Notes: a model not told the origin generated them from the letters alone. 64,000 bases of DNA from an uncultured delta proteobacterium (GCA_963753975.1 CAVWEH010000005.1:608001-672000), one strand, 5' to 3'; shown: positions 27,651-49,239, counted from the first letter of the stretch. Numbers and translations: made by a program.

Positions 27651-28013
27651 ATGAAAATAGCATTTACAACTTCAGGAAATGATTTGAGCTCTCCACTGGA
27701 CAGCCGTTTTGGACGGGCGCCGAAATTTCTCATCTACGATCTGGAGGCGAACATCTTCGAAATCGTCGATAATGAGCAGAACCTGAATGCGGCGCAGGGC
27801 GCAGGCATCCAGTCCGCGCAGAGCATCGCCCGCCTGGGTACGAAGGCGCTCATCACCGGGCATTGCGGCCCGAAAGCGTTTCGCGTGCTCATTGCGGCAG
27901 GTATCAAAATCTACAACACATCCGCCGCGACTGTATCGGAAGCGTTGAACCTTTACGTTGCCGGTAAACTGGCCGAGGCAACATCCGCCGACGTTGAAGG
28001 TCACTGGGTATGA
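27651..28013 (+). CDS. orange protein (ORP)-like NifB/NifX family protein
   Basis: LDSRFGRA, AAQGAGIQ, TGHCGPKAF, C-terminal DVEGHW. Confidence 0.85.
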   Translation: MKIAFTTSGNDLSSPLDSRFGRAPKFLIYDLEANIFEIVDNEQNLNAAQGAGIQSAQSIARLGTKALITGHCGPKAFRVLIAAGIKIYNTSAATVSEALNLYVAGKLAEATSADVEGHWV

Positions 28014-28501
28014 ATCTGTGTGATATTCTTTATTGGTCTATCGGCATTATCCACAGCGAGCATACGATTGTGGAAAAAACGCCCATCCAACCTGTTTACG
28101 CCAAAGGGTGCAAGGGGTATGTCGATCTGTGTCCGGAGTTTGTCGATGGTTTGCGTGATCTTAGCGATTTTTCGCATATTTATCTGATTTACCATTTTCA
28201 CCAGGCGCGTTCTGTCCAACTTCTGGTCAAACCGTATCTTCAGAATATTGAACACGGCATTTTTGCCACACGTGCGCCGTTCCGCCCTAATCCTATCGGT
28301 TTAAGTGTTGTGGAACTGCTCGGCATTGAAGGCAATATTTTGCATTTGGACGGCGTGGATATCCTGGACGGCACACCGCTTCTGGACATCAAACCCTACA
28401 TAGCCAAGTTTGATCGGTTCGAAGTGAGTCGAAGCGGATGGCAGGATGAAGTGGACGAAGCTACCGCTCATAAGCGCGGGAAAAGGGATTATAAAAAATG
28501 A
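28010..28501 (+). CDS. tsaA: TsaA/TrmO family (tRNA m6t6A37 methyltransferase-like)
   Basis: IGIIHS, TPIQ, FSHIYLIYHFH, GIFATRAPFRPNPIGLS, DGTPLLDIKPY. Confidence 0.88.
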   Translation: MNLCDILYWSIGIIHSEHTIVEKTPIQPVYAKGCKGYVDLCPEFVDGLRDLSDFSHIYLIYHFHQARSVQLLVKPYLQNIEHGIFATRAPFRPNPIGLSVVELLGIEGNILHLDGVDILDGTPLLDIKPYIAKFDRFEVSRSGWQDEVDEATAHKRGKRDYKK

Positions 28502-29105
28502 AGCCGACACTTATTGCAACCGAACTCAGAGCGCATGCCCCATTTACAGCATTTGGAACAGTAACGGGCATTGTAATTATGGCCGCTTTTATTCAATTTC
28601 AGATATCGAGGGAAATTTCGGCCACGCTCTTCTGGTCCTTCCATCCTCTGCACGTGCTGGTAAGCGCTTTAGTGACTACCGCTATGTACCGGCTGCGTTC
28701 AAAAGGAGAAATTTTACCCACAATCATCATCGGATATTTAGGTTCCGTAGGCATCGCAACACTCAGCGATTCCCTAATTCCTTTTGTCGGAGAATGGTTA
28801 CTAAATATGCCCCATCGCGGCGTTCATCTGGGCTTTATCGAAAAATGGTGGCTGATCAATCCGCTGGCGCTGGCCGGTATAGCGCTGGGATACATAAAGC
28901 CAACAACGACATTTTCTCACGCAATCCATGTTTTTTTAAGCACCTGGGCGTCGTTGTTTCATATTCTGATGGCATTAGGAACATCCATCGATGTCGTGTT
29001 ATTTTGGTGGCCGTCTTTTTATTTTTAGCGGTTTGGATACCCTGTTGCACCAGTGACATTGTTTTCCCTTTGCTCTGGATTAAAAAAGCAGGAGACACAA
29101 CATGA
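28498..29105 (+). CDS. His/Cys-containing membrane protein, frameshifted near 28995
   Basis: HAPFT, FHPLHVLVSA, IATLSD, HAIHVFLST; the hydrophobic C-terminus FLAVWIPCCTSDIVFP lies in another frame. Confidence 0.65.
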
Positions 29106-29947
29106 AAATTTCCATTGCTTCGGGAAAAGGCGGCACAGGTAAAACCACCGTCAGCGTCAATCTGGCGCGCGTGTTTAATACCGATATCCTGCTTGCAGAT
29201 TGTGATGTGGAAGAACCCAACGCGCATTTGTTTTTGAAAACAACTGGTCTTAGCGAAGAAGTCGCCTCTATTTTGGTTCCGAGCGTGGACGAAACATCAT
29301 GCAATGCATGTGGTGAATGCGCGAAAATCTGTGAATTTTCTGCAATCGTCAGTTTTGGAACGCTGCCGCTTGTTTTTCCGGAGATGTGTCACGCTTGTGG
29401 CGGGTGTGCCAAGGTGTGTCCGACTGGTGCGATCATAGAACAGAAACGGCGCATTGGCGTTGTTGAAACATCGCGAGTGGGCAACATCACCCTGATTACG
29501 GGAAGGCTGGATGTTGGTGTGGCTATGTCTCCGCCGTTGATCCGGGCAGTTAAAGAACGTTTGCAAAATAATATACCGGTAATTCTGGATGCGCCTCCGG
29601 GAACTTCGTGTCAGGTAATTGCTTCCATTCGCGATACCGATATGGTTTTACTGGTTACGGAACCCACACCGTTTGGCTTGCACGATCTTAAGCTTGCCGT
29701 GGATATGGTGCGCGAGCTTAAAATTCCTTTCGGTGTCATCGTCAACCGTATGGGTAGCGGGGATAACCGTGTGCACGATTATTGCCAAAAAGAAAAAATA
29801 CCAATCTTACTGGAAATACCGGATGACCGGCGAATAGCCGAGGCTTATTCTAGGGGAATCCTTATGGTGGATGCTTTGCCGGGATACGGGAAGCTTTTTA
29901 ATAAACTGCTTGAAAAAATTAACAGAGAAAAAGTGAGGAAGAATTAG
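29102..29947 (+). CDS. MinD/CobQ-type P-loop ATPase with inserted 2x[4Fe-4S] domain (Orp3/4-like)
   Basis: SGKGGTGKT, DCDVEEPN, CNACGECAKIC, CHACGGCAKVCP, DAPPGTSC, TEPTPFG. Confidence 0.88.
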   Translation: MKISIASGKGGTGKTTVSVNLARVFNTDILLADCDVEEPNAHLFLKTTGLSEEVASILVPSVDETSCNACGECAKICEFSAIVSFGTLPLVFPEMCHACGGCAKVCPTGAIIEQKRRIGVVETSRVGNITLITGRLDVGVAMSPPLIRAVKERLQNNIPVILDAPPGTSCQVIASIRDTDMVLLVTEPTPFGLHDLKLAVDMVRELKIPFGVIVNRMGSGDNRVHDYCQKEKIPILLEIPDDRRIAEAYSRGILMVDALPGYGKLFNKLLEKINREKVRKN

Positions 29948-29950
29948 ATT

Positions 29951-30208
29951 ATGCCAACTTATGAATATGAATGTACCAGCTGTAGTCTGCGCTTCGAGGA
30001 ACAGCAAAGCATCAAGGACGCTCCGCTTGAACAATGTCCCGAATGCGGGGGAAACGTCCGGAGGCTCGTGAGCGGCGGCAGCGGTTTTGTGATGAAAGGC
30101 CAGCATTCCAGTCGCCGCGATTCAGCAAAGAGCTGTTCGCTCGAAGAAACGGGCAGAACCTGCTGCGGCGCAACAAGTCGTTGCGGACAGTCGCATTGCG
30201 GAGATTAG
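29951..30208 (+). CDS. FmdB family zinc-ribbon protein
   Basis: MPTYEYECTSC...CPECGG; Cys-rich tail. Confidence 0.88.
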   Translation: MPTYEYECTSCSLRFEEQQSIKDAPLEQCPECGGNVRRLVSGGSGFVMKGQHSSRRDSAKSCSLEETGRTCCGATSRCGQSHCGD

Positions 30209-30212
30209 AAAA

Positions 30213-31163
30213 ATGAGTTCAAGCGATTTTAAATATCTTTATGGTCCCGTTCCGTCTCGAAGGCTGCGACGTTCACTGGGGCTTGACCTCGTACCGTTCA
30301 AAACCTGCACGTATGATTGCATCTACTGTCAGCTGGGACGGACAACGAATAAAACGATCGAGCGGCAGGATTTCTTTCCCGTCGTTGATATTTTGGCTGA
30401 GTTGAAAAATAAACTGGCGACGGGCGACAATCCCGACTACATCAGCGTCGCCGGTTCCGGAGAACCGACACTGCATTCAGGAATCGGCGAGCTCATTGGG
30501 AAAATCAAGGAACTCACAAAAATCCCCGTGGCTGTTCTGACCAACGGCTCCTTGCTTTATCTGCCCGATGTCCGAACAGCGCTGGCTAAGGCCGATTTGG
30601 TCATTCCATCGCTTGATGCCGGAGATGAAACTCTGTTTCGTTACGTTAACCGACCGCATCCAGACATTGTGTTCGAAGACATGGTCAACGGCATGATTGA
30701 ATTCACCCGGCATTTTCCCGGCAAGGTCTGGCTGGAAGTCTTTTTGCTTTCCGGTATCACCGGCATGATTGCTGAAGCGCGAAAAATCGCCGCATATGCC
30801 AAGCAAATCGGCGCGCAGAGAGTTCAGCTCAACACGGTAAGCCGGCCATCGGCGGAAGACTTTGCCTGCGCGGTGGAGGCCGGGCAGCTGAAAAAATTTG
30901 CCAAACTTTTTTCACCTCCGGCAGATATTATTGCGGATAACGAAACTGTGTATGCTTCCATATCAATTGCTAAAGATATTGCAGGCGACGACATTGTCAA
31001 CTTGTTGGCTAGACGTCCCTGCGCGCTAACAGGTGTTTGCTCGGGACTGGGCCTGCACCCGCACGACGCGGTTAAAAAGCTCAAGAAGCTCATTGATGAA
31101 AAACGGATCACAACGCTGCGTACCAGCCATGACGTATTCTACACGATAGCGGAGAAATTTTGA
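30213..31163 (+). CDS. radical SAM protein
   Basis: YGPVPSRRL, CTYDCIYC (CxxxCxxC), GSGEPT, LTNGS. Confidence 0.9.
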   Translation: MSSSDFKYLYGPVPSRRLRRSLGLDLVPFKTCTYDCIYCQLGRTTNKTIERQDFFPVVDILAELKNKLATGDNPDYISVAGSGEPTLHSGIGELIGKIKELTKIPVAVLTNGSLLYLPDVRTALAKADLVIPSLDAGDETLFRYVNRPHPDIVFEDMVNGMIEFTRHFPGKVWLEVFLLSGITGMIAEARKIAAYAKQIGAQRVQLNTVSRPSAEDFACAVEAGQLKKFAKLFSPPADIIADNETVYASISIAKDIAGDDIVNLLARRPCALTGVCSGLGLHPHDAVKKLKKLIDEKRITTLRTSHDVFYTIAEKF

Positions 31164-32035
31164 TGAAGGAACTAGTGATTATCAGCGGCAAGGGCGGGAC
31201 AGGCAAAACCAGCGTCACAGCTTCATTTGCCGCGCTGGCCAAGCGTCCGGTAATCTGCGATTGCGATGTGGACGCGGCCGATTTGCATCTAGTACTGGTA
31301 CCGCAAATTATCGAAGAACATGAATTCATGAGTGGTCATGAAGCAGTCATTCGTCAGGCTGACTGCATTGCTTGCGAAATTTGCCGGGATATCTGCCGCT
31401 TTGACGCGGTTAAGACACAGCAATCCTGCGAAGGCGATCTTTTGTTTTCCATTGATTCCGTGTCCTGCGAGGGATGCGGAGTGTGTGTGCACTTCTGCCC
31501 GGAAAAAGCGATTGATTTTCCAGAACGTATGTGCGGCAAGTGGTTTGTTTCTGAGACGCGTTGTGGCCCGATGGTGCACGCGCGTTTGGGTGTGGCCGCC
31601 GAAAATTCCGGCAAGCTCGTTTCCACGGTACGCCGGGAAGCCCGCCATTTGGCCGAAGAAGAAAATTATAAAATGGTGATTGTGGACGGCCCGCCGGGCA
31701 TCGGTTGTCCGGTAATTGCTTCCGTCACCGGTGCAACGCAGGTTCTGGTGGTCACGGAGCCGACAGTTTCCGGCGAGCATGATCTGGAAAGAGTGTTGGC
31801 TCTGACGCGCCATTTTCAAATCCCCGCAGCCATTTGCGTCAACAAGTGGGATATTAATCCCGATATGACTCAGCGCATTGAAGAAAAAGCGCAAAAGACC
31901 GGTGCGCTCATTGCGGGGCGCATCCGTTATGACAGCGCTGTCACCCAGGCTCAGATTCAGCAAAAAGCGGTAGTGGAAATTGAGGCGGCCTGCGCGCAAG
32001 ACATTATACAAATCTGGAAAAAGCTAAATGTGTAG
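31160..32035 (+). CDS. second MinD/CobQ-type P-loop ATPase with 2x[4Fe-4S] domain (Orp3/4-like)
   Basis: SGKGGTGKT, DCDVDAADL, CIACEICRDIC, CEGCGVCVHFCP, ENSGKLV, DGPPGIGCP. Confidence 0.88.
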   Translation: MMKELVIISGKGGTGKTSVTASFAALAKRPVICDCDVDAADLHLVLVPQIIEEHEFMSGHEAVIRQADCIACEICRDICRFDAVKTQQSCEGDLLFSIDSVSCEGCGVCVHFCPEKAIDFPERMCGKWFVSETRCGPMVHARLGVAAENSGKLVSTVRREARHLAEEENYKMVIVDGPPGIGCPVIASVTGATQVLVVTEPTVSGEHDLERVLALTRHFQIPAAICVNKWDINPDMTQRIEEKAQKTGALIAGRIRYDSAVTQAQIQQKAVVEIEAACAQDIIQIWKKLNV

Positions 32036-32050
32036 GAGGAAATAGTAAAA

Positions 32051-33343
32051 ATGGACGAAGTTATCGATTTCGACAAATTTTATTTGACGGCACAGCGACA
32101 CGCCAACGATCCGCACAATCTCGGCGCGCTTACCGATTTTAACGGTAACGCGAAAATCACGGGTCCCTGCGGCGACACGATGGAGTTTTGGCTTGACGTG
32201 CAAAACGGAAAAATTAAAAAGGCATGGTTTATCACCGATGGCTGTGCTCCCTCACTGGCCAGCGGCAGTATAGCCACATGTCTGGCCGAAGGGAAGACTA
32301 TTCCCGAAGCCAAAGCTGTAAGCCAGCAGGATATTCTCAAGGCGCTGGGCGGCCTACCGAAGGATTCCGAGCATTGCGCGCTGCTAGCTGTGAATACCTT
32401 GAAAGCGGCCTGCGAGAATTATGAAAAGGGAGCGCAATCCAAGACAGGAAGCGTCAAGAGTAAAACCTGCGATACTTGTGGTGATTCTAGCTGTTCTGCA
32501 TCCAAGCAAAACAAAGACGAATCTCCGGAAGAATTCGCGGATCGTCGCAGACTGCAAGCCAAACTTTGCCGTATCCGCCATAAAATTATCGTGCTTTCCG
32601 GCAAAGGCGGCGTCGGCAAAAGCACCGTCGCGGTTAATCTGGCCACCGCGCTGGCGCTGGAAGGCCTGCGCGTGGGACTGCTAGATGTGGATATTCACGG
32701 GCCAAGCATTCCCACTATGCTGGGACTCGAAAATGAAACCCTTCAGGGCAGTGACAGTGGATTGCTTCCGGTGGAACTGGGGAATATGAAAATCATGTCG
32801 ATTGGCTTTCTACTGAAAAACCCCGACGATGCCATCATCTGGCGTGGTCCGATGAAAATGGGAGTGATCAAACAGTTTCTCACGGATGTGGAATGGGGCG
32901 ATCTGGATTATCTTATTGTGGACGCTCCTCCGGGCACTGGCGACGAACCGCTTTCCATATGCCAATTAATTCAGCCATTGGATGGTGCGGTGATCGTCAC
33001 CACACCCCAGAAGGTGGCGGCGGTGGATGTGCGTAAATCCATCAGTTTCTGCAGGCAGGTCAACGTACCCGTGCTGGGCGTTATCGAAAACATGAGCGGT
33101 TTTGTCTGCCCGAAATGCGGCGAAATCACGCAAATATTTCCGGCTGGCAGCGGCAGAATAATAGCGGCGGATATGAAAGTTCCTTTCCTGGGGGCGATTC
33201 CGATGGATCCGAGCATTGCCCAGTCCGGTGATGACGGTCGCGCGTTTATAAATCATTACGCGTCCAGCGCGACGGCAAAGCTTATGCAGGACATCATCGA
33301 TCAGATTACAAACTTGGATAAAACAAATAAACTAAATTCATAA
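32051..33343 (+). CDS. NifU/IscU-like domain fused to Mrp/NBP35 Fe-S carrier ATPase
   Basis: N-terminal GPCGD, DGC, EHCA; then SGKGGVGKST, WRGPMK, DAPPGTGD, ENMSGFVCPKC. Confidence 0.88.
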   Translation: MDEVIDFDKFYLTAQRHANDPHNLGALTDFNGNAKITGPCGDTMEFWLDVQNGKIKKAWFITDGCAPSLASGSIATCLAEGKTIPEAKAVSQQDILKALGGLPKDSEHCALLAVNTLKAACENYEKGAQSKTGSVKSKTCDTCGDSSCSASKQNKDESPEEFADRRRLQAKLCRIRHKIIVLSGKGGVGKSTVAVNLATALALEGLRVGLLDVDIHGPSIPTMLGLENETLQGSDSGLLPVELGNMKIMSIGFLLKNPDDAIIWRGPMKMGVIKQFLTDVEWGDLDYLIVDAPPGTGDEPLSICQLIQPLDGAVIVTTPQKVAAVDVRKSISFCRQVNVPVLGVIENMSGFVCPKCGEITQIFPAGSGRIIAADMKVPFLGAIPMDPSIAQSGDDGRAFINHYASSATAKLMQDIIDQITNLDKTNKLNS

Positions 33344-33355
33344 GGAGGAAATACC

Positions 33356-33694
33356 ATGAAAGTTGCAATACCGTTAGCCGAAGGAAAGTTGACCACGCAT
33401 TTTGGACACTGTGCGAGTTTCGCCATCATCGAAGTTGACGACAAAACCAAGAAAATTTTAAAACGCGAAGACATTGCTGCGCCTGAGCATCAGCCCGGTC
33501 TTTTGCCGCCCTGGCTGGCCGAACGCGGCGCAAATGTGATCATTGCCGGCGGCATGGGCAGCCGCGCACAGGAATTGTTCGCCGCACAAGGTATAAAGGT
33601 TCTTGTTGGCGCTGGTGCGGAGACGCCGGAAAAACTGGTCAACGATTACCTGGCTGGCACGCTGCAAGCCGGCGAAAATGTCTGCGATCACTAA
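33356..33694 (+). CDS. NifB/NifX family protein
   Basis: MKVAIP, HFGHC, PEHQPGLLP, AGGMG, C-terminal NVCDH. Confidence 0.87.
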   Translation: MKVAIPLAEGKLTTHFGHCASFAIIEVDDKTKKILKREDIAAPEHQPGLLPPWLAERGANVIIAGGMGSRAQELFAAQGIKVLVGAGAETPEKLVNDYLAGTLQAGENVCDH

Positions 33695-33715
33695 GATCAA
33701 AGGAGAATCAACGCT

Positions 33716-34669
33716 ATGGCGAAAACGACATTAAGCGCTGTGGACAAAGTCAAGATTCTGACCTTGCAGGACAACTATATCGAAATGACGGCGATGGACA
33801 ACAGCGCTCTCATTTCGCGCGCCATGCCGCTTAAAGAAGGAGAAATACGTGCCTCCATTTTGGCGGAGCACGGTTTTTCGGCGCTGGTCAAAACCACGGC
33901 GGAGGGCAAAACGCACACGCTGCTTTTTGACTTTGGATTTTCCGAAGACGGGGCAGCCAAAAACGCGGCCACGCTGGGATTCAACATGCATGAGGTTGAA
34001 GCAGCGGCTCTGTCCCACGGACACAGTGATCACACCGGCGGCATGAAAAAACTCACCGGTCTTATCGGTAAAAAAGATATTCCCTTTGTTGCGCATCCAT
34101 CCGCTTTTAAATTTCCCCGTTATTTAAAATTTAGCGAGGAACTCAAAATCAACTTCCCTAAATTGACGCGGGAAATGGTTGAGTCTTTGGGGTATCGTGT
34201 CATCGAATCCGCAAATCCTTATCCGCTTGTCGACAATACAATTCTTTTTTTGGGAGAAATCCCGCGCCAAACGGATTTTGAAAAAGGCTTTCCCATTGCC
34301 CACTGGCAGAAAGACGGAAAAGAACTGTGGGATGCCATTGAAGACGACACGTCTATTGTCATGCATCTGAAAGACAAAGGACTGGTTATTCTTTACGGAT
34401 GCGCGCATGCGGGTATCGTGAACACGGTTCAATACGCGGTGGAGGTCACCGGTATCGACAGGGTTCATGCGGTCATGGGCGGGTTTCACCTCTCCGGATC
34501 GTTTTTTGAACCGATTATTGACCGCACCACCGAGGAGCTTCAGAAATTTCATCCGGCCTATGTGATCCCGATGCACTGCACAGGCCGTAAGGCCATCATG
34601 GCGATGGAAAAACAAATGCCGGACCAATTTATTTTAAATATGGCGGGAACGAAACTCACCTTCACCTGA
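33716..34669 (+). CDS. metallo-beta-lactamase fold hydrolase
   Basis: EHGFS, LFDFG, SHGHSDHTGG, GCAHAG, GGFH, PMHCTG. Confidence 0.88.
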   Translation: MAKTTLSAVDKVKILTLQDNYIEMTAMDNSALISRAMPLKEGEIRASILAEHGFSALVKTTAEGKTHTLLFDFGFSEDGAAKNAATLGFNMHEVEAAALSHGHSDHTGGMKKLTGLIGKKDIPFVAHPSAFKFPRYLKFSEELKINFPKLTREMVESLGYRVIESANPYPLVDNTILFLGEIPRQTDFEKGFPIAHWQKDGKELWDAIEDDTSIVMHLKDKGLVILYGCAHAGIVNTVQYAVEVTGIDRVHAVMGGFHLSGSFFEPIIDRTTEELQKFHPAYVIPMHCTGRKAIMAMEKQMPDQFILNMAGTKLTFT

Positions 34670-36019: not shown

Positions 36020-37725
36020 ATGACAAAAAGAAAAAGAATTGTAGTGATCGGCGGCTCAGCTGCTGGCCCCAAGGCGGCGGCAAAAGCCAGAAGAATCGAC
36101 AACGATGCGGAAGTTGTCATTCTGCAAAAAGATGCGGATCTTTCCATGGCGTCCTGCGGTTATCCTTATTATGTCGGCGGATATTTCAATGACCGCAACA
36201 TGCTTTTGTGCACGCCCACGGGCGTTGTTCGAAATCCGATGTTTTATCTCAACGCCAAGGACATCGACGCACGAGTAAACACGGAAGTCACAGCCATCGA
36301 CCGGAAAAACCATTCCGTTTCGTTTCAAAAATATTGTGACCGGCGAAACCGGCACCATTGACTTATGACAAACTCGTCATCGCCACCGGTTCCGTCCCGC
36401 AAATGCCGCCGGTGCCCGGCGTGGAACTCGAAGGCATTACCACCCTGCAATCCATGAAAGACGCCGACTTTCTGCGCAAAGTCCGCGACGAAGGAAAAAT
36501 CAAAAAAGCCGTCGTCATCGGCGGCGGGCTGATCGGCATCGAAACCTGCGAAGCCCTGCAACTGGCGGGTATCGAAATCACGGTGATTGAACTTTTGCCT
36601 CAGCTGCTCACGTTTCTGGACTGGGAACTGGCCAAACTCGTGGAAAACCATGTCAGGAGCAAAGGCGCCAATGTCATCACGGACAACGGCATTGCCGAAT
36701 TCCTCGGTGAAAACGGCAAACTGACGGCGGTCAAACTGCAAAACGGCACGGAACTGCCCTGTGAACTGGCGGTTGTGGCCATCGGCGTCTATCCCAACGT
36801 CAAACTGGCCAAAGAAGCTGGTCTGAAAATCGGCGAATCTGGGCGGCATTGATGTCAATGAATATATGCAGACTTCCGATCCGGATATCTATGCCGTCGG
36901 CGACTGCGTGGAAACGGTCAACAGAATTACCGGTAAAAAAGTGCTCGCGCCCTACGGCGATCTGGCCAACCTTCAGGGACGTGTGGCGGGAGAAAACGCC
37001 GCTTCGAAAAACTGCGTGACATTTCCCGGAACGATTCAAACCGGCATCTGCAAGGTCTTCGATTATGCGGCAGGCTCCACCGGACTTTCCGAAACAGCGG
37101 CAAAAAGACTCGGATATTCAGATATCATCACGGTCATCAACGCCAGCCCCGACAAGCCGGGGTTTATGGAAGGAAAGCTTCTGGTCACCAAGCTCATTGC
37201 CGATACAGAAAACAGGCAGAGTGTTGGGCGCTCAGTGCATCGGTCCCGGCAATGTCAGCAAGCAAATCGCCCAGTGGGCAATGGCCATCCAGGGAAAACT
37301 GACCGTTGAAGATATCATCAATGCGGATCTGCCCTATGCGCCGCCTTTTTCTCTGGCTATCGATCACTTCATCGCCACGGCGCACATTATGCAGAATAAA
37401 ATGAAAGGCAGGCTGAAGGGCATTAGTTGCAAGGAAGTACAACGAGAAAGTGCTAAACAATGAAAAACCTTTCCTCATCGACACGAGAGGGCCGGAAGAA
37501 TTCGAGGAAATGCGCCTGGGCATCGGCGAGACGCTTATTCCCCTGGGCGCGCTGCGCAAGCGATTGAAGGAACTTCCCGAAGATAAGAACAAGGAAATCA
37601 TCTGCTACTGCAAGATTTCACTGCGCGGCTACGAAGCGGCGCTGGCGCTGGAAGGCAATGGATGGAAAAACGTCAAGGTCATGGAAGGCGGCATCATGGC
37701 CTGGCCGTATCCGAGGGAAAAATAG
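36020..37725 (+). CDS. CoA-disulfide/persulfide reductase-like flavoprotein with C-terminal rhodanese domain, five +1 frameshifts (probable sequencing errors)
   Basis: GGSAAG, SMASCG, ATG, GGGLIG, GDC, YAPPFS, rhodanese YCKISLRG spread over several frames. Shifts near 36324, 36358, 36842, 37207 and 37441; 1706-5 = 1701 nt in frame. Confidence 0.85.
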
Positions 37726-39158: not shown

Positions 39159-39297
39159 AAATCCAAAAATAGCCGGCGGGCGGCGGTTAAGTGAACTGCT
39201 TGCCGCTTACAGATGCATTTTATGTAAGCTATTTTTTTGGACACGGAAGAGGTTTTTCTTATCATTTTGAAAATATTTTTTATTAGGAGGTAAGTCC

Positions 39298-40002
39298 ATG
39301 AACATCGGTGACTTGGACAAAACTTTTCATTTCATTATAAAGCGTATGGTGGAAACCGGGCGAGCTCCCCACTACACGGAAATAGCGAAAGAACTGGGCG
39401 TCTCCATGGAGGAGGGGCGGAAGATCATGCAAGAGCTTTTTACCAAGAGGGTGCCGGGATGGCTTGCTCCAAGTACGGATTTCATCGCTTCGTTCGCGCC
39501 ATTTAACAGTCAACCTACTCAGTTTCGCATCACTATCGAAGGCCGGCAGAAATGGTTTGGCCAATGAGCATTCGAATCGCTGGCGGTCTGCTGGCTTTTC
39601 CCGGGTAAAAAGGTAGAAATTGATACCCCTTGTCTTGATTGTGGGGAACCCATTCATGTGGAGATTCGAGATGGGATGATCTTGAAGGCCGAGCCAAAGG
39701 AGATAATCGGATATGTAGCTGTTCCATTTGCCAAGTGGGCTCAAGATACAAGCTATGCCTGAACGACCATGACTTTCTTCCGGTCGGAAGAACATCTTCG
39801 CAACTGGGCGCTCTTTAAGCCCGATACTGAGGAGGGGATTATTCCACTGCCTGACTTACTCAAACTCTTTTCCGGCAAAATGTTTCGCCGGAGAATGGAC
39901 CCCGACTATCTTTCCCGCATGCGGGAATATGGCCTGGATTTTTGGACAACTCTTCAAGAAATCGGCAAGGTCGGCCCTTTCTGGTCGCTGAAGAAATCAT
40001 AA
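39298..40002 (+). CDS. MerB (organomercurial lyase)-like selenoprotein, 234 aa, Sec90 and Sec155
   Basis: One frame from ATG 39298 (AGGAGG RBS) to TAA 40002, with TGA at 39565 (WFGQ-U-AFE) and 39760 (SYA-U-TTMTFFRSEEH). These match the MerB W-C-A-L-D and F-C-x-x-x-x-F-F motifs, and a SECIS-like hairpin follows each. Confidence 0.85.
39579..39595 (+). promoter_or_regulatory. SECIS-like hairpin for UGA 39565
   Basis: 11 nt after UGA: GCUGGC-GGUCU-GCUGGC (two G-U pairs); loop resembles E. coli fdhF SECIS. Confidence 0.7.
39775..39792 (+). promoter_or_regulatory. SECIS-like hairpin for UGA 39760
   Basis: 12 nt after UGA: UUCUUCC-GGUC-GGAAGAA, perfect 7-bp stem. Confidence 0.78.
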
Positions 40003-40074
40003 TCGCCTGCTCGTCCGCCGGTCGGCAATCCGGTCGGCGGATGCAGGGATTGAAAAAATAAATGGAGGTCTTTA

Positions 40075-41106
40075 ATGTATGCCTTGAAATTTAAAGAAAG
40101 AGTTTGCGCTACCTGTCCTTCGGCCGACTGTCTCCTGAAGTGCCAGTACATGTCCTTTAGCGGACATAAAGAAGCGCATAAGGAGATGATGAAGGTTGTT
40201 CGCGGTGAGGATTCCCGCATATTGCGCGAGTGTACGACTTGTTATGCCTGCGAGGAATATTGCAGAAGAAGAAATCATCCCTTTTATCTCATCAGTGAAC
40301 GCCGGGAAGAAAAAGGCATGTTCACCGCGCCCCGCCCCATCACCAATCAGTGGATTAATATGACCAAGATGCAGGGCAAATATATGGTCGGCCAGGTGAA
40401 GGACAAGGTGCTTTCCTGCTGCTACATTCCTGCTCTGGGGATGCTGGGGCAAGGGGAAATTTTCAAGGACGTCGCAACGGCTGCCGCTTTCGGCGCGGAA
40501 TTCATGTGTCCCGCCGTCCACACTCATTTTGCCCGCATGGCGGTTATCAAAGAGCGCCTTCCTGTCGTCATTGAAAATTTTAAGAAATTAGGCGCAAAAG
40601 AGGTTATCTGCCTGCATGATGAATGCTACGGCACCTTTACTTCCATTGCCTCCGCTTACGGAATTCACGTTCCGTTTAAGCCGGTTTATTACATGGATTT
40701 TTTATTGGAAAAAATGAAAGAACTCAAAGGCAGGATCAAGCCGCTTAATATTAAAGCCGCTTATCAACGTCCCTGCTCCAACAGGCTCATTCCGGATAAA
40801 CTGCCCCTGGTGAAAAAAATCCTGAATTTAATCGGGGTCAAACTGCCCAAGAGGATATATCAGGATGAGAATTGTCTTTGCTGCGGAGAAATTATCCGGT
40901 CTGTTTCCGGCTACAAACTGGCGGATGATGTGCAAAAAAGAAATATAGACGATATGCTCGAAAGCGGTGCCGAGTATTGCGTTTTCAACTGTCCGGCTTG
41001 TCAGTCATCGCTGTCGGAGAAGGTTATCAAGAAAGGGTTGAAGCCGATCCATATTATTGATCTGTGCAAGATGGCCATTGGTGAAAAGGAAAGGGAGGTG
41101 AAGTAA
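40075..41106 (+). CDS. Fe-S/CCG-domain oxidoreductase subunit (HdrD/GlcF-like)
   Basis: CATCPSADCLLKC, CTTCYACEEYC, HDEC, QRPC, CLCCG, NCPAC. Confidence 0.82.
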   Translation: MYALKFKERVCATCPSADCLLKCQYMSFSGHKEAHKEMMKVVRGEDSRILRECTTCYACEEYCRRRNHPFYLISERREEKGMFTAPRPITNQWINMTKMQGKYMVGQVKDKVLSCCYIPALGMLGQGEIFKDVATAAAFGAEFMCPAVHTHFARMAVIKERLPVVIENFKKLGAKEVICLHDECYGTFTSIASAYGIHVPFKPVYYMDFLLEKMKELKGRIKPLNIKAAYQRPCSNRLIPDKLPLVKKILNLIGVKLPKRIYQDENCLCCGEIIRSVSGYKLADDVQKRNIDDMLESGAEYCVFNCPACQSSLSEKVIKKGLKPIHIIDLCKMAIGEKEREVK

Positions 41107-41107
41107 G

Positions 41108-42487
41108 ATGAGCGACATCCTGAAATCGCTAATCGATATCGTTGGAGAAAAAGGTGTTTCCAATACGCCTGAAGAGCTTTGGTTCTACTCGCGTGACCCC
41201 GGAGTTTTGACACCACATCTCCCCGACTACGTAGTGGCGCCTAAAACAACGGAGGAAGTGCAGAAGATCGTTTTGCTTGCCAACAGGGAAAAAATTCCCA
41301 TTGTGCCCATGGGAAACGGCATGTCCCTGACTGGTCTGGTGATCCCGTTGAGGGGCGGCATCGTTCTGGACATGAAGCGGATGAACAAAATTCTGGAGGT
41401 AAATCAAATGGCCCGCTACGCCGTGGTGGAAGGGGGAACATCGCAGGGTGTTCTCAAAGCCTACCTGCAGGATCACCATCCTCAACTACGCCACAGCATA
41501 CCCGACGCGCCGCCGGCGACAACCATCGCCGCAAATGCCGCTCTCCACGGCCAGGGCCGCCTGACCCAGCAATATGGTTTCAACTCCGATATGGTCACGG
41601 GCATGGAGGTTGTCCTGCCCACGGGCGAAGTCTGTTTGATCGGCTCTCCCTCATTGGGCCCTTACTGGTTTTCGAAGGGGCCCACGCTGCCCGACCTTTC
41701 CGGCCTCTTTCTCGGCTGGCTGGGAACGACAGGCATCATCACCAAAATCGGCCTTCGCCTCTACCCGAATAAAAAGATTCGGGACGTAGAGTTATTCGTG
41801 ACCGATCGGGTGGACATGATCCCCGACATCCTTTATAAGCTTACTCACCTGGAAATCCTGGAAGACGTGAACGTCTGGTTTCAGCCCAAACCCCTTGTGT
41901 TTCAGGGCAATTTTCACATCACCATCTTCTTTACGGGAGATACAGATGAGGAGATCGTTTTTAAGCGGCATATGATCTGGGATGCCCTGCAGGAGTATAT
42001 GGATTCCAAAGACGGAGGTTTCATGGGCGTCCAGTACATGAAAAATATGCTATTGGAGATGCCGAGCCGGGGGGTCGCCGATTTTGCCGATGTTCCGAAA
42101 GGCGGCGGATTTGAGTATTCAGGACCGATAACCATCATCGAACACTTCCCTCGCTACGCGGCCAAGGTTGTTGAACTGGCGAAGAAATACGACGTCCTGT
42201 ATGCCAGCGCGGCCCGTCTCATCTCCGGCGGGCATTGTATGATGTTCAGCATCTCTTTTGCCTTCAATCGCAATGACCCGGCTATGATGGAGCGAGTGAA
42301 GCACGCCCTGGACGAGGCCATGGCCTTCGCCTTGGAAATGGGCGGCATTCCCTGGAAACCGAATTTTGTAGAGCAGAAAATGACTCTGGAGAAAATGGAC
42401 CCCACGGCCCGGAAGCTCCTTCATATGATCAAGAAGAACCTGGATCCTCAGGGCATCATGAATCCCGGCAATTGGGAGGTAAACTAA
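41108..42487 (+). CDS. FAD-binding oxidoreductase (GlcD/D-lactate dehydrogenase family)
   Basis: PDYVVAP...EEVQKIV, GNGMSL, GMEVVLPTG, GTTGIITK, IKKNLDPQGIMNPG. Confidence 0.88.
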   Translation: MSDILKSLIDIVGEKGVSNTPEELWFYSRDPGVLTPHLPDYVVAPKTTEEVQKIVLLANREKIPIVPMGNGMSLTGLVIPLRGGIVLDMKRMNKILEVNQMARYAVVEGGTSQGVLKAYLQDHHPQLRHSIPDAPPATTIAANAALHGQGRLTQQYGFNSDMVTGMEVVLPTGEVCLIGSPSLGPYWFSKGPTLPDLSGLFLGWLGTTGIITKIGLRLYPNKKIRDVELFVTDRVDMIPDILYKLTHLEILEDVNVWFQPKPLVFQGNFHITIFFTGDTDEEIVFKRHMIWDALQEYMDSKDGGFMGVQYMKNMLLEMPSRGVADFADVPKGGGFEYSGPITIIEHFPRYAAKVVELAKKYDVLYASAARLISGGHCMMFSISFAFNRNDPAMMERVKHALDEAMAFALEMGGIPWKPNFVEQKMTLEKMDPTARKLLHMIKKNLDPQGIMNPGNWEVN

Positions 42488-43665
42488 TGGCTGACGTACA
42501 TAATATAGAACATCAAGAGATCGTCCACCGGTGTTTCCGTTGCGGATATTGTAAATTCCCGAGCGACTATGTCGATTTCAACTGCCCGTCTTACAAGGCT
42601 TTCGGATGGGATACCTATTCTGCGGGCGGGAGGATGTGGCTCATCAGAGCCTGGCTGAGTGGCGAAATTAAAACGAGCCCCCATTTTGCCGAAATACTTT
42701 ACTCCTGCGTAGCATGCGATAATTGTAAGAATCAGTGCGTTTTCCCGAAATTCAAAGATTTTCTGCCGGAAATATTCCAGGAAACTAAAGTGGAACTGGT
42801 CAACGAAGGCAGGATTCCGCCGGAGGTTCGGGATTATTTCAAGGCCGTCGCCACCAACGGCAACCCTTACAAACTGCCGCAGTCGGAAAGAGGCAAATGG
42901 ACCGAAGGAACAGAATTAAAAAAATATTCGGGTCAGGAGTATCTCTTTTATGCGGGCTGCGTCGGTTCCTACGACGAAGTGGGACAAAAGATGGCCCGCA
43001 GCGTGGGGAGTCTGCTGGTTGGCGCCGGCGTGTCCCTGGGCATTCTGGGGAGTGAAGAAACCTGTGACGGCAACGAAGTCAAAATTCTCGGAGAGATGGG
43101 TCTTTTTACGCAACTGGCCAATGACAATATCAAGAAATTTAAGTCACAGGGCGTTAAGAATATTATCACCCTTGATCCCCATGCCCTGAACGTCTTCAAG
43201 AAAGATTATCCCAAACTGGGAGGGAGCTTTAAGGTACTTCACTATACGGAAATACTGGCTGGGTTAATCAAGGCAAAAAAAATTCCCCTTTCTAATTATT
43301 CGGCGAAAGTCACCTACCACGACCCCTGCTATTTAGGCAGGCATAATCAGATTTATGGTCCTCCGCGGGAGATACTGAAATCAATTCCCGGCCTCGAATT
43401 GGTCGAAATGCGTCGTAATTCTCTGAACGCGTTTTGCTGCGGAGGGGGAGGAGGAAACTTTTTTACGGACATTTTGGGTACAGGCGTTGACAGTGCGGGC
43501 CGTGTCCGTGTTCGGGAAGCTCTGGAGACAGGCGCCAATATTATCGCTGTAGCTTGTCCGAGCTGTGCCAAAATACTTATGGATGCTGTGAAGATGGAAA
43601 AGCTGGAAGACAAGCTGGAAGTTTTGGGCATCGCCGAAATCGTCGGGAGAGCCCGCAAAAAGTGA
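42487..43665 (+). CDS. Fe-S/CCG-domain oxidoreductase subunit (GlcF/HdrD-like)
   Basis: CFRCGYC, CVACDNCKNQC, YAGC, YHDPCYLGR, CCGGGGG, ACPSC; start overlaps upstream TAA. Confidence 0.88.
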   Translation: MADVHNIEHQEIVHRCFRCGYCKFPSDYVDFNCPSYKAFGWDTYSAGGRMWLIRAWLSGEIKTSPHFAEILYSCVACDNCKNQCVFPKFKDFLPEIFQETKVELVNEGRIPPEVRDYFKAVATNGNPYKLPQSERGKWTEGTELKKYSGQEYLFYAGCVGSYDEVGQKMARSVGSLLVGAGVSLGILGSEETCDGNEVKILGEMGLFTQLANDNIKKFKSQGVKNIITLDPHALNVFKKDYPKLGGSFKVLHYTEILAGLIKAKKIPLSNYSAKVTYHDPCYLGRHNQIYGPPREILKSIPGLELVEMRRNSLNAFCCGGGGGNFFTDILGTGVDSAGRVRVREALETGANIIAVACPSCAKILMDAVKMEKLEDKLEVLGIAEIVGRARKK

Positions 43666-43679
43666 AGAAAGGAAAGGGT

Positions 43680-44210
43680 ATGGATAAAGAAGATATACTC
43701 AAGGAAGTCTATGATAAAGCGAAGGGATACGAGCTCAAAGGAGGAAACTGCGCGCAGTGCAGTATTGCCGCTATTTTCGAAATAATGGGAGTGGAAGATG
43801 AAGGAGTATTCAGAGCCGCGACAGGTTTGGCCGATGGCGTGGGCTTAAGCGGAGATGGTCATTGCGGAGCACTTTCCGGAGGGACGATGGCCATCAGTTA
43901 CTTTTTCGGCAGAAGTCGAGAAGATATCGGCAGGATGGGCAAACAGATTAAGGCCTTGCTTCTGGCAAAAAAGCTTCATGATGAATTTGTGGAGAAATTT
44001 TCCACGTGCCGGTGTGCCGATATTCAGAAAAAACAGTTTGGCCGTTTCTTTAATCTCTATGATGTGGAAGAGATGAAGGCGGCCTTTAAGGCGGGCATGC
44101 CGGAAAAATGCTCGACGCTGGTAGGAGAGACGGCGCGAATAGCCCTGAAAATTATTCTCGATGAGCAGGAAGCAAGAAAGGCAAAGCAAGATGAACTTCC
44201 TGTTTTATAG
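43680..44210 (+). CDS. C_GCAxxG_C_C family putative redox-active protein
   Basis: NCAQC, HCGALSGG, CRCADI, KCS. Confidence 0.85.
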   Translation: MDKEDILKEVYDKAKGYELKGGNCAQCSIAAIFEIMGVEDEGVFRAATGLADGVGLSGDGHCGALSGGTMAISYFFGRSREDIGRMGKQIKALLLAKKLHDEFVEKFSTCRCADIQKKQFGRFFNLYDVEEMKAAFKAGMPEKCSTLVGETARIALKIILDEQEARKAKQDELPVL

Positions 44211-47418: not shown

Positions 47419-49239
47419 ATGAAAAAAAGTTATATTTTTCTATTTTTGTTGATATTTTTCTGCACAACGAATGTTTGCATGGCCAAGCAGGAGACTTTCT
47501 CCGACGGAGGGGGTATTCTCTATACGGAACCATTGAAGGCTGTTATTTTCCGGCATCAATACCATGTGGATGTTAAACATATTACCTGCGATAAATGCCA
47601 CAGCGGCCTCTTTGAGATGGAAGCCCTCAAAGTTCAGGGAGAAAATGATTTCACTATGAAGTCCCTGGATGAAGGAAAGTATTGCGGAGCATGTCATAAC
47701 GGGAAGGATGCTTTTGCCTCGAACACCGAGTGCACCAAATGCCACGTTCGTCTGGACGATTGGCAAGGACGAGTGGGGTATCTCAAGGGGAACCCTATGC
47801 CGTATAAAATCCCTGTTTACAATACTTCCATTTCCTTCGGGCAGGGTGAAATGAAAGTCCGCTTCAATCACGAAAAGCATTCATCGCCTTTGAGCTGCCG
47901 GGATTGCCATTCGCAGCTCTTTCGAATCAAAAAAGGTTCAAACAATATAACCCTTCTGAATCACAATCCGCAAAAATACTGTTTTGGCTGTCATGATGGG
48001 AAAGAGACCTTTTCCTGGTATAGCTGCAATAAATGCCACAAAAACTGGACGGAAATTGCCCAGGTCGGCCCCCTGAAAACAAAGGCCGACAAAGGCAGTT
48101 GCTACAAATGTCATACCAGCGCGAGCGAAATGAAAGCCCTGGTAAAACCGCCGTTAATACAGAGCGAGGGAGAGGGGTGAGCAGGACCACCTCCCCCGGT
48201 TCGGGCGGAAGATTATTACAAGGGTTATATGGTAAATCCGGCGTGGATGGGCAAGGATTTTCACCTGGGCATGGAATGCGTTTCCTGCCACAAGGGAGAT
48301 GACAAAAGCCAAACAAAGGAAGCAGCCCACGCGGGATTTGTGCGCCAGCCGTCCGATAATCTGGAAACCTGCGGCATATGTCATAAGAAGACAGCCGCAA
48401 ACTACGCCAAAGCTCTTCATTACACCAGTTTGGGACAGTATGAAGGCGTCAAGCACAGGTTTTCCGCAGAAGAACTGAAAACCTTTGACAGTAAGGTTTT
48501 TAATCAATCGTGCCGGACATGCCATGCATCCTGCGGTGATTGCCATGTCAAATCGCCGCCTGTTTCCGGCATTACCACCGGGCTCTTGCAAGGCCACAAA
48601 TTCGTAAAGAAAAACGAAGGCAAGACCTGCGCTTCCTGTCACGGCGGCCGCGTTTATCCGGAATTTACGGGAGAATACGGTGGCACACCCGATATCCATT
48701 ATCAGAAAGGCATGATTTGTGTGGATTGTCACAAAAAGACCGAAATGCACGGGGACGGCACAATGTATAAATCCAAGCAGGAAGTCAAGGAGCGCCCCCG
48801 CTGTCAGTCTTGCCACAAAGATAAAAAATTTCAGCTCGCCCACGAAATACACAAGGATACGGTTAGCTGTCAGGGCTGCCATTCGTCGGGTCCGTATCGC
48901 CAGTGCTACAGCTGTCATCTGGATACGGGATCTTCATCCAAACCGGGTTTTATTTTGGGTTTAAATCCGCATGACAAGAAGACGTTGACGACGCTGAGGC
49001 TTGTTCCAACTGTAAGGACTACATTTAATCAGGCCGGAATCAAAATGGAAAACTTCGATACCCTGCCGAACTACTGGAATTCGGCGGTGCATAACATCAC
49101 GAAACGGACGGAGCGGACACGATCCTGTGATTCCTGCCATGTGGCAAAAGAAGGATTCCTTAAGCGCGAATCGCTTATTAAGGATGGTTCAAAAGCGAAT
49201 GAGGAGTTAATTTACAACATTAAACCAAGCAGCAAGTAG
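47419..49239 (+). CDS. 17-heme cytochrome c selenoprotein, 606 aa, Sec254
   Basis: ORFs 47419-48180 (7 CxxCH) and 48229-49239 (10 CxxCH) share a frame, separated only by TGA 48178-48180 (SEGEG-U-AGPPPPV). A SECIS-like hairpin follows, and the second ORF has no signal peptide. Confidence 0.8.
48192..48209 (+). promoter_or_regulatory. SECIS-like hairpin for UGA 48178
   Basis: 11 nt after UGA: UCCCCC-GGUUC-GGG(C)GGA. Confidence 0.65.

Follow-up and report, generated by a model that had tools for sequence, protein, structure and literature searches.

A MerB homologue with two selenocysteine (Sec) residues and the four genes behind it occupy positions 39298-44210 of a 64,000-nucleotide stretch of DNA from an uncultured delta proteobacterium (GCA_963753975.1 CAVWEH010000005.1:608001-672000; this whole stretch is called the window below). 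On balance, the five genes are probably three separable units that one lineage has strung into a family-specific, operon-like block, with the MerB-like gene as an optional first gene. The units are the MerB-like gene, a trio encoding a flavin adenine dinucleotide (FAD) protein between two iron-sulfur (Fe-S) proteins with CCG domains (CCG1-FAD-CCG2), and the gene for a C_GCAxxG_C_C family protein. Across the phylum neither the MerB-like gene nor the trio depends on the other. Any cooperation between them would therefore be facultative or regulatory, and an obligate five-gene machine is excluded. Because the pairing is kept in one family and is rare elsewhere, a shared pathway is possible and unproven.

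The five-gene block

The genome from which the window was taken comprises 2.43 Mb in 6 contigs and is 95% complete. A preliminary description, made from the DNA alone, had proposed a single system of five co-oriented genes, the last four of them at most 14 nt apart or overlapping. The open reading frame (ORF) calls and the Pfam matches agree with this layout:

39298..40002, + strand: MerB-like selenoprotein, 234 residues, translated through two in-frame TGA codons; Pfam MerB, 83.7 bits
40075..41106, + strand: CCG1, HdrD-like, 343 residues; two N-terminal Cys4 motifs and a C-terminal CCG domain (Pfam CCG, 33 bits)
41108..42487, + strand: FAD-linked dehydrogenase of the vanillyl-alcohol oxidase/p-cresol methylhydroxylase (VAO/PCMH) superfamily, 459 residues, without EHG; Pfam FAD_binding_4 and FAD-oxidase_C
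42472..43665, + strand: CCG2, Fe-S protein of the GlcF/GlpC/HdrD type, 397 residues; Pfam Fer4_8 and two CCG domains
43680..44210, + strand: C_GCAxxG_C_C family protein, 176 residues, all-Cys form; Pfam 80.6 bits, TIGR01909 55.8

The MerB-like gene is separated from CCG1 by 72 nt, CCG1 from the FAD gene by 1 nt and CCG2 from the C_GCAxxG_C_C gene by 14 nt. CCG2 overlaps the FAD gene by 16 nt if it starts at the TTG codon, or by 1 nt if it starts at the ATG at 42487. All Pfam matches are above their cut-offs (MerB 83.7 bits against 27; CCG1 CCG 33 against 20.6; CCG2 CCG 85.6 against 20.6 and Fer4_8 37.5 against 27; FAD_binding_4 109.5 against 26.4 and FAD-oxidase_C 42.2 against 21.2; C_GCAxxG_C_C 80.6 against 27). 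The last protein also passes the corresponding NCBIfam model (PF09719/TIGR01909; 55.8 against 47.4). The NCBIfam search gave no named equivalog for the MerB-like protein, CCG1, the FAD protein or CCG2.

Linkage within the family

The family of the window's genome was surveyed in 116 genomes. The MerB-like gene is present in 23 of them and a CCG1 orthologue in 40. Both occur in 21 genomes, and in 17 of these, belonging to four genera, the MerB-like gene lies directly upstream of CCG1 in the same orientation. Three genomes have the MerB-like gene and the trio on different contigs, two have the MerB-like gene only, and 19 of the 40 CCG1 holders have the trio only.

A wider set was made up of the best 80 of at least 551 MerB-like matches in species-representative genomes. 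At 14 linked loci (L121-L130 and L132-L135), in metagenome-assembled genomes (MAGs) labelled Syntrophaceae, Smithella or Smithellaceae, the MerB-like gene, a match of 73-87% identity, is followed by CCG1-FAD-CCG2. One named Smithella MAG has the MerB-like gene (L131) and the trio (L216) on separate contigs. Of the 11 full-length linked loci among L121-L135, 10 have an orthologue of the C_GCAxxG_C_C protein, with 70-85% identity, behind the trio (at L122 the contig ends first), and an extra C_GCAxxG_C_C gene sometimes lies between the MerB-like gene and CCG1. In seven linked loci (L125, L126, L128, L130, L133, L134 and L135) the block itself is kept although the genes that flank it in the window are absent from the surrounding 8 kb.

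Adjacency over short spacers in four genera, and a block that persists while its flanks change, argue for the functional system of the preliminary description. In such a system the di-Sec lyase would cleave a carbon-metal or carbon-metalloid bond, and the CCG/FAD/CCG complex would regenerate the enzyme, with C_GCAxxG_C_C proteins acting as thiol shuttles. Regeneration would consist in the reduction of a Se-Se or Se-metal-Se state or in the oxidation of the organic product that is set free, and would substitute for MerA in an anaerobe that carries HgcA. We consider this a possible arrangement, if a doubtful one. The adjacency at the family level may also be due to plain descent, and the MerB-like gene has decayed beside an intact trio in one genome (G489). 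There CCG1 is intact, and its immediate neighbour is a remnant corresponding to residues 143-233 and carrying TGA, TAG and TAA stops (G489:C1:509898-510158). The same genome has a further di-Sec copy, which is intact, about 180 kb from the remnant.

Distribution across the phylum

When 401 genomes were sampled evenly across the phylum, the di-Sec MerB-like gene was found, by our tally, in 39 genomes, the trio in 45 and both in 14. No trio is present anywhere in 25 of the 39 MerB-like holders, and 31 of the 45 trio holders are without the MerB-like gene. The two are linked in none of the 13 sampled genomes that have both besides the window's own; they are on different contigs, or the trio side is without the MerB-like gene. 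At 38 of 40 MerB-like loci none of the four partner genes is near. Of the remaining two, L072 has FAD and CCG2 3.5 kb away on the opposite strand, and L070 has CCG paralogues only. No other family recurs beside the MerB-like gene in more than 6 of 41 loci. When 121 MerB-like loci were classified, 88 were unlinked, 17 linked and 16 unresolved, so that 88 of the 105 resolved loci are without the trio, and linkage was found in none of 15 further loci chosen as relatives of the L141 gene discussed below.

The trio is likewise autonomous. The order CCG1-FAD-CCG2 is kept in 39-40 of 40 loci containing CCG1 orthologues from many families of the phylum, and no MerB-like gene occurs within about 8 kb of the trio at any of these 40 sampled loci. 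Its neighbours there are variable (acyl-CoA synthetase in 7, a metallo-beta-lactamase-fold protein in 6, a sigma-54 activator in 5), the C_GCAxxG_C_C gene being near in just 8. Trio-only loci were found among close relatives too. The preliminary description would have been refuted by a linkage that is not conserved elsewhere; the linkage of the MerB-like gene to the trio is conserved inside the family and recurs at two junctions outside it (L174 and L141). Across the rest of the MerB-like range it is mostly absent, and the five-gene system as first described is only partly supported.

The MerB-like tree mixes phyla, rows labelled Poribacteria, Abyssobacteria and Dehalococcoidia standing among Thermodesulfobacteriota rows, and the gene is patchy even within the family (23 of 116 genomes). 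Both observations are in keeping with a mobile cassette of one gene, inserted upstream of the trio in an ancestor of the family and passively inherited since. Such passive carriage seems decidedly improbable to us. In about half of the linked loci the block has survived a change of its flanks, chance would hardly place two independent landings on exactly the same side of a unit of three genes, and no recombination-site motif was recognised on inspection of the spacer. Three separable units, which one lineage has brought together, remain the reading that we prefer.

The spacer and the promoter region

Two features bear on whether the MerB-like gene and the trio would be transcribed together:

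39238..39265, + strand: sigma-70-like promoter match upstream of the MerB-like gene (TGGACA, 16-nt spacer, TATCAT; 10 of 12 positions), a consensus match only
40000..40052, + strand: strong hairpin starting at the MerB-like stop codon (-33.7 kcal/mol, z -5.8; 0 of 200 shuffles fold as well)

The consensus scan that gave the promoter match found 7 sites against 6.3 expected in shuffles. The hairpin is unique in the genome, and the ribosome-binding site of CCG1 lies 12 nt past it. It has no U-tract on its 3' side and was not called by the terminator scan. Most relatives with short spacers (L121-L135) have a variable hairpin at this position, enclosed by a 7-nt inverted repeat, AATCTCC...GGAGATT, the start of which lies in the stop codon of the MerB-like gene. 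The outer stem is paired in 84% of cells against 33-54% in slid controls, with no covariation. Neither a supported consensus hairpin nor compensatory pairs emerged when ten spacers were analysed with RNAalifold, and the fold is weak in L002. The 5' arm of the inverted repeat is complementary to the ribosome-binding site of CCG1 as well, and this was the pairing that RNAalifold picked. No conserved leader upstream of CCG1 was seen in the trio-only loci. An Rfam search over 35-50 kb of the window returned nothing relevant, the sole match being a chance long non-coding RNA at E 0.71.

A very stable hairpin between the genes of the window speaks against a functional system. It would suit a passively carried cassette, for which the post-stop hairpin would be the MerB-like gene's own terminator or stabiliser; stable hairpins 3' of the stop codon occur in unlinked MerB-like loci too (z < -2 in 17 of 88).

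Evidence against separable units

Several observations weigh against the preferred reading. Co-occurrence of the two units is raised: the trio is present in 14 of 39 MerB-like holders and in 31 of 362 non-holders, an odds ratio of 6.0, which is overstated as kin are not independent. Spacers of 65-92 nt are compatible with co-transcription, and so are the missing U-tract after the hairpin and the lack of any + strand promoter match between the MerB-like gene and CCG1. The same junction between the MerB-like gene and a trio occurs on two unrelated contigs, L174 (190-nt gap) and L141 (257-nt gap). The MerB-like genes of these two contigs fall into separate, well-supported subclades in which the other members are unlinked, and their trios group with a different deep subfamily in both the FAD and the CCG1 tree, so that two or more lineages of the trio take part in the junction. 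A single clade for the 17 linked CCG1 rows is rejected by the approximately unbiased (AU) test (345 log-likelihood units, p-AU 6e-5), the choice of this group having followed inspection of the tree. Functional coupling would be expected to bring the genes side by side more than once.

The raised co-occurrence and the two extra junctions with a non-orthologous trio are points for a functional system. Against it stand the 25 of 39 MerB-like holders without the trio, the 31 of 45 trio holders without the MerB-like gene and the lack of linkage in 13 of 13 other genomes with both. Moreover, each of the two junctions, L174 and L141, is a single case on a co-assembled MAG contig, linkage is missing in the nearest kin of both, and relatives of the L174 flavoprotein do not exceed 53% over the full length. 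If the MerB-like gene were a passively carried cassette, these two contigs would be chance events or assembly chimeras.

Selenocysteine decoding

Each of the two in-frame UGA codons of the MerB-like gene is followed by a hairpin resembling a selenocysteine insertion sequence (SECIS), as judged by RNA folding:

39565-39567, + strand: first UGA (U90), with a SECIS-like stem-loop at about 39579-39595, loop GGUCU
39760-39762, + strand: second UGA (U155), with a SECIS-like hairpin at about 39775-39792, 7-bp stem, loop GGUC

Both TGA codons are present in 44 of 44 MerB-like matches at E <= 5e-44 in the 401 genomes of the phylum. The apical loop GGUC is found 3' of the second TGA in 113 of 120 homologous loci, and a loop GGUCU or GGUCA 3' of the first in 72 of 120. 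SelB (363.9 bits, cut-off 242.25) and tRNA-Sec are encoded in the window's genome. Because of this conservation, the conserved hairpins, SelB and tRNA-Sec, the two TGA codons are not due to chance, and the gene has what identifies a bacterial selenoprotein gene: conserved in-frame UGA, a downstream hairpin and, in SelB and tRNA-Sec, Sec machinery in the genome. The di-Sec MerB-like protein of the preliminary description is upheld by the same evidence. A few members of the family have Cys/Sec or Cys/Cys at the two sites. Gene callers have cut the family members at residue 89 or 154, or have read TGA as Trp.

The MerB-like protein

The MerB domain (PF03243) spans residues 70-190. In an alignment, U90, E93 and U155 fall on Cys96, Asp99 and Cys159 of MerB and on the corresponding positions of MerB2; the MerB numbering is that of the accessible portion of a preprint by Haft and Gwadz (bioRxiv 10.1101/2022.07.06.499078). 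E93 is nearly invariant among 21 MerB-like sequences. An AlphaFold model built on 21 sequences has a predicted local distance difference test score (pLDDT) of 94.2, and its matches in the PDB at E <= 0.001 are exclusively 11 MerB and MerB2 chains, with target-normalised template-modelling scores (TMt) of 0.55-0.69. By analogy with MerB, the protein would be a stand-alone MerB-type lyase with Sec in place of both metal-ligand cysteines and Glu in place of the catalytic Asp. An organometal, most likely an organomercurial, would be held between the two selenolates while its carbon is protonated.

A further pair of cysteines, C112-x-x-C115 (window 39631-39642; PCLDCG, with Asp between), is invariant in 21 family members. 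The aligned stretches of two MerB/MerB2 chains have a single Cys in this region. The pair may form a second metal or redox site.

The trio and the C_GCAxxG_C_C protein

The trio, a separate enzyme of wide distribution, merits a study to itself. CCG1, with one Pfam CCG domain and Cys4 motifs, and CCG2, with Fer4_8 and two CCG domains, are Fe-S proteins of the HdrD/GlcF type. Invariant in 29 CCG1 orthologues are C11/C14/C19/C23, C53/C56/C59/C63, C269/C270 and C302/C306/C309. The best NCBIfam matches of CCG2 are far under their cut-offs (TfrB 118 against 385; LdhH 98.5 against 800). Sec in CCG1 orthologues was considered, and seven stop-containing loci were aligned; the idea was dropped because both in-alignment stops are at the C-terminal end.

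EHG is the metal-binding and catalytic motif of D-2-hydroxyacid dehydrogenases. A search of the FAD protein and 32 orthologues aligned with it turned up neither EHG nor GEHG (0 of 33), which bears out the earlier remark that the flavoprotein appears to lack the C-terminal GEHG. The protein scores 112.4 bits against the GlcD model TIGR00387, the cut-off of which is 567.9. Its structural model (pLDDT 81.4) has a query-normalised template-modelling score (TMq) of 0.82 to mouse D-lactate dehydrogenase and of 0.79-0.84 to eugenol, vanillyl-alcohol and 4-ethylphenol enzymes. For the C-terminal half, p-cresol methylhydroxylase is a marginally closer match (E 8e-4) than D-lactate dehydrogenase (E 0.2). 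The earlier label "GlcD-like" is too narrow, since the fold is as close to vanillyl-alcohol, eugenol and p-cresol enzymes as to D-lactate dehydrogenase; by fold alone the FAD protein cannot be separated from 4-phenol oxidases.

The trio would be described as an autonomous soluble dehydrogenase, in which a VAO-type flavoprotein is flanked by two HdrD-like Fe-S/CCG subunits. The flavin would take electrons from a small organic substrate and pass them through [4Fe-4S] clusters to the clusters of the CCG domains, which would act on an acceptor of the thiol/disulfide type. CCG domains do thiol/disulfide chemistry, as is established for HdrB and HdrD, and this chemistry is also a point for the functional system, in which electrons would flow on to the selenoprotein. 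The C_GCAxxG_C_C protein, which in this clade goes with the trio, is a candidate for the trio's acceptor.

The trio was not found described in literature searches on HdrD-like/FAD/CCG enzymes of sulfate reducers. FAD and CCG2 pairs were also seen in Promethearchaeota MAGs, at 43-55% identity; on the contigs L218-L233, most of which have no CCG1 in front of the pair, the identity to the window's proteins is 43-50% for FAD and 34-37% for CCG2.

Mercury genes

A search of the whole 2.43-Mb, 95%-complete genome gave no MerA above the cut-off (the best match, which lies outside the window, has 362.8 bits against 454.45) and no MerT. merR and merP were not seen in Pfam scans of the ORFs at 27.6-53.3 kb of the window, in which no family-specific search for them was made. 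Within this scope the earlier statement that the locus is not a mer operon stands. HgcA, the corrinoid protein of mercury methylation, is encoded outside the window (G000:C5:164910-165896; 470.8 bits, cut-off 275). Across the 401 genomes, HgcA passes its cut-off in 19 of the 39 genomes with the MerB-like gene and in 100 of the 362 without it, an odds ratio of 2.5 among kin that are not independent, and this co-occurrence is a weak lead.

The presence of HgcA and the lack of MerA and MerT count for a functional system, since without the latter two any bound metal needs another outlet. Stated in full, the di-Sec lyase would head an operon in hgcA-carrying syntrophs of the Syntrophaceae/Smithella type, and the flavin/HdrD-like complex would regenerate it together with the C_GCAxxG_C_C protein, giving a MerA-independent, strictly anaerobic cleavage of carbon-metal bonds such as the demethylation of methylmercury. 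We hold this specific proposal to be unlikely.

Anaerobic turnover of methylmercury in sediments and peat has, to our knowledge, been attributed to organisms without a classical mer operon, and we know of no enzymes assigned to it. The di-Sec MerB-like protein, widespread in Thermodesulfobacteriota with at least 551 loci in species-representative genomes, is a concrete candidate for this activity. The window places it in a genome that also encodes HgcA; it points to a place in which to look for a redox partner, and at the same time sets bounds to such an idea.

Neighbouring genes

The surroundings of the block are sulfur-themed, with two rhodaneses, a YgaP-like membrane protein, a CsoR-family repressor and homologues of NrfD and NrfC. 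Two further features were noted:

36020-36361, 36358-36852, 36866-37309, 37065-37463 and 37450-37725, + strand: frameshifted CoA-disulfide-reductase/rhodanese fragments
47419-49239, + strand: multihaem c-type cytochrome with one in-frame TGA at codon 254 (GEGU-AGPPPP), one Sec

The fragments belong to a CoA-disulfide-reductase-like gene with a C-terminal rhodanese domain (36020-37725), which is split over at least four frames and is either a pseudogene or the product of assembly indel errors. The selenocytochrome is part of an NrfD-NrfC-cytochrome-rhodanese string downstream of the CsoR-family repressor. It has homologues in G394 (59%) and L129 (83%), and an identity as ExtKL was not called by NCBIfam. 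In G394, a genome of the same order, the MerB-like gene lies beside a multihaem cytochrome/rhodanese cluster and without the trio. Upstream, at 27651-34666 (+ strand), is a string of genes of the Fe-S assembly type: two Nitro_FeMo-Co (NifB/X-like) genes, three P-loop genes of the MinD/ParA type with ferredoxin inserts or a NifU domain, a radical SAM gene and a TrmO-like gene.

Comparison with known systems

The trio resembles GlcDEF, D-lactate dehydrogenase with an Fe-S/CCG partner, and HdrD, in which a FAD_binding_4 flavoprotein likewise stands beside a protein with Fer4 and two CCG domains. It differs from GlcDEF and D-lactate dehydrogenase in the absence of EHG, in a GlcD score under the cut-off and in the constant presence of a second HdrD-like subunit, CCG1.

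The nearest described selenoprotein is SaoL (NCBIfam NF040728), the MerB-like member of a nine-gene SAO locus (Haft and Gwadz, bioRxiv 10.1101/2022.07.06.499078). According to the accessible part of that preprint, SaoL is a MerB homologue of anaerobes with Sec at the site equivalent to Cys159, and in these respects it is like the present protein. It has, however, one Sec in a CU dipeptide, whereas the present protein has two and Ala precedes U155. Identity with SaoL was rejected: NF040728 gives 51.7 bits against a cut-off of 140, and both the CU dipeptide and the nine-gene SAO neighbourhood are missing. No transporter genes of the SAO type were found by Pfam scans of the ORFs within 27.6-53.3 kb of the window. 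In the accessible portions of the prokaryotic selenoproteome tables of 2022 and 2026, SaoL is the sole entry under MerB, so that a double-selenolate homologue is missing from them, and literature searches gave nothing on a double-Sec MerB.

MerB itself (PF03243; PDB 3F0P/3F0O; MerB2, 5C17) shares with the selenoprotein the Pfam domain, the fold and three aligned catalytic positions. The protein scores far under the NCBIfam cut-offs for MerB (40.2 against 193 for NF009710 and 34 against 200 for NF033555). The triad Cys/Asp/Cys of MerB is replaced by Sec/Glu/Sec, which is chemically analogous and not identical, and compared with MerB the selenoprotein carries an extra C-terminal segment of about 45 residues and the invariant C112-x-x-C115 pair.

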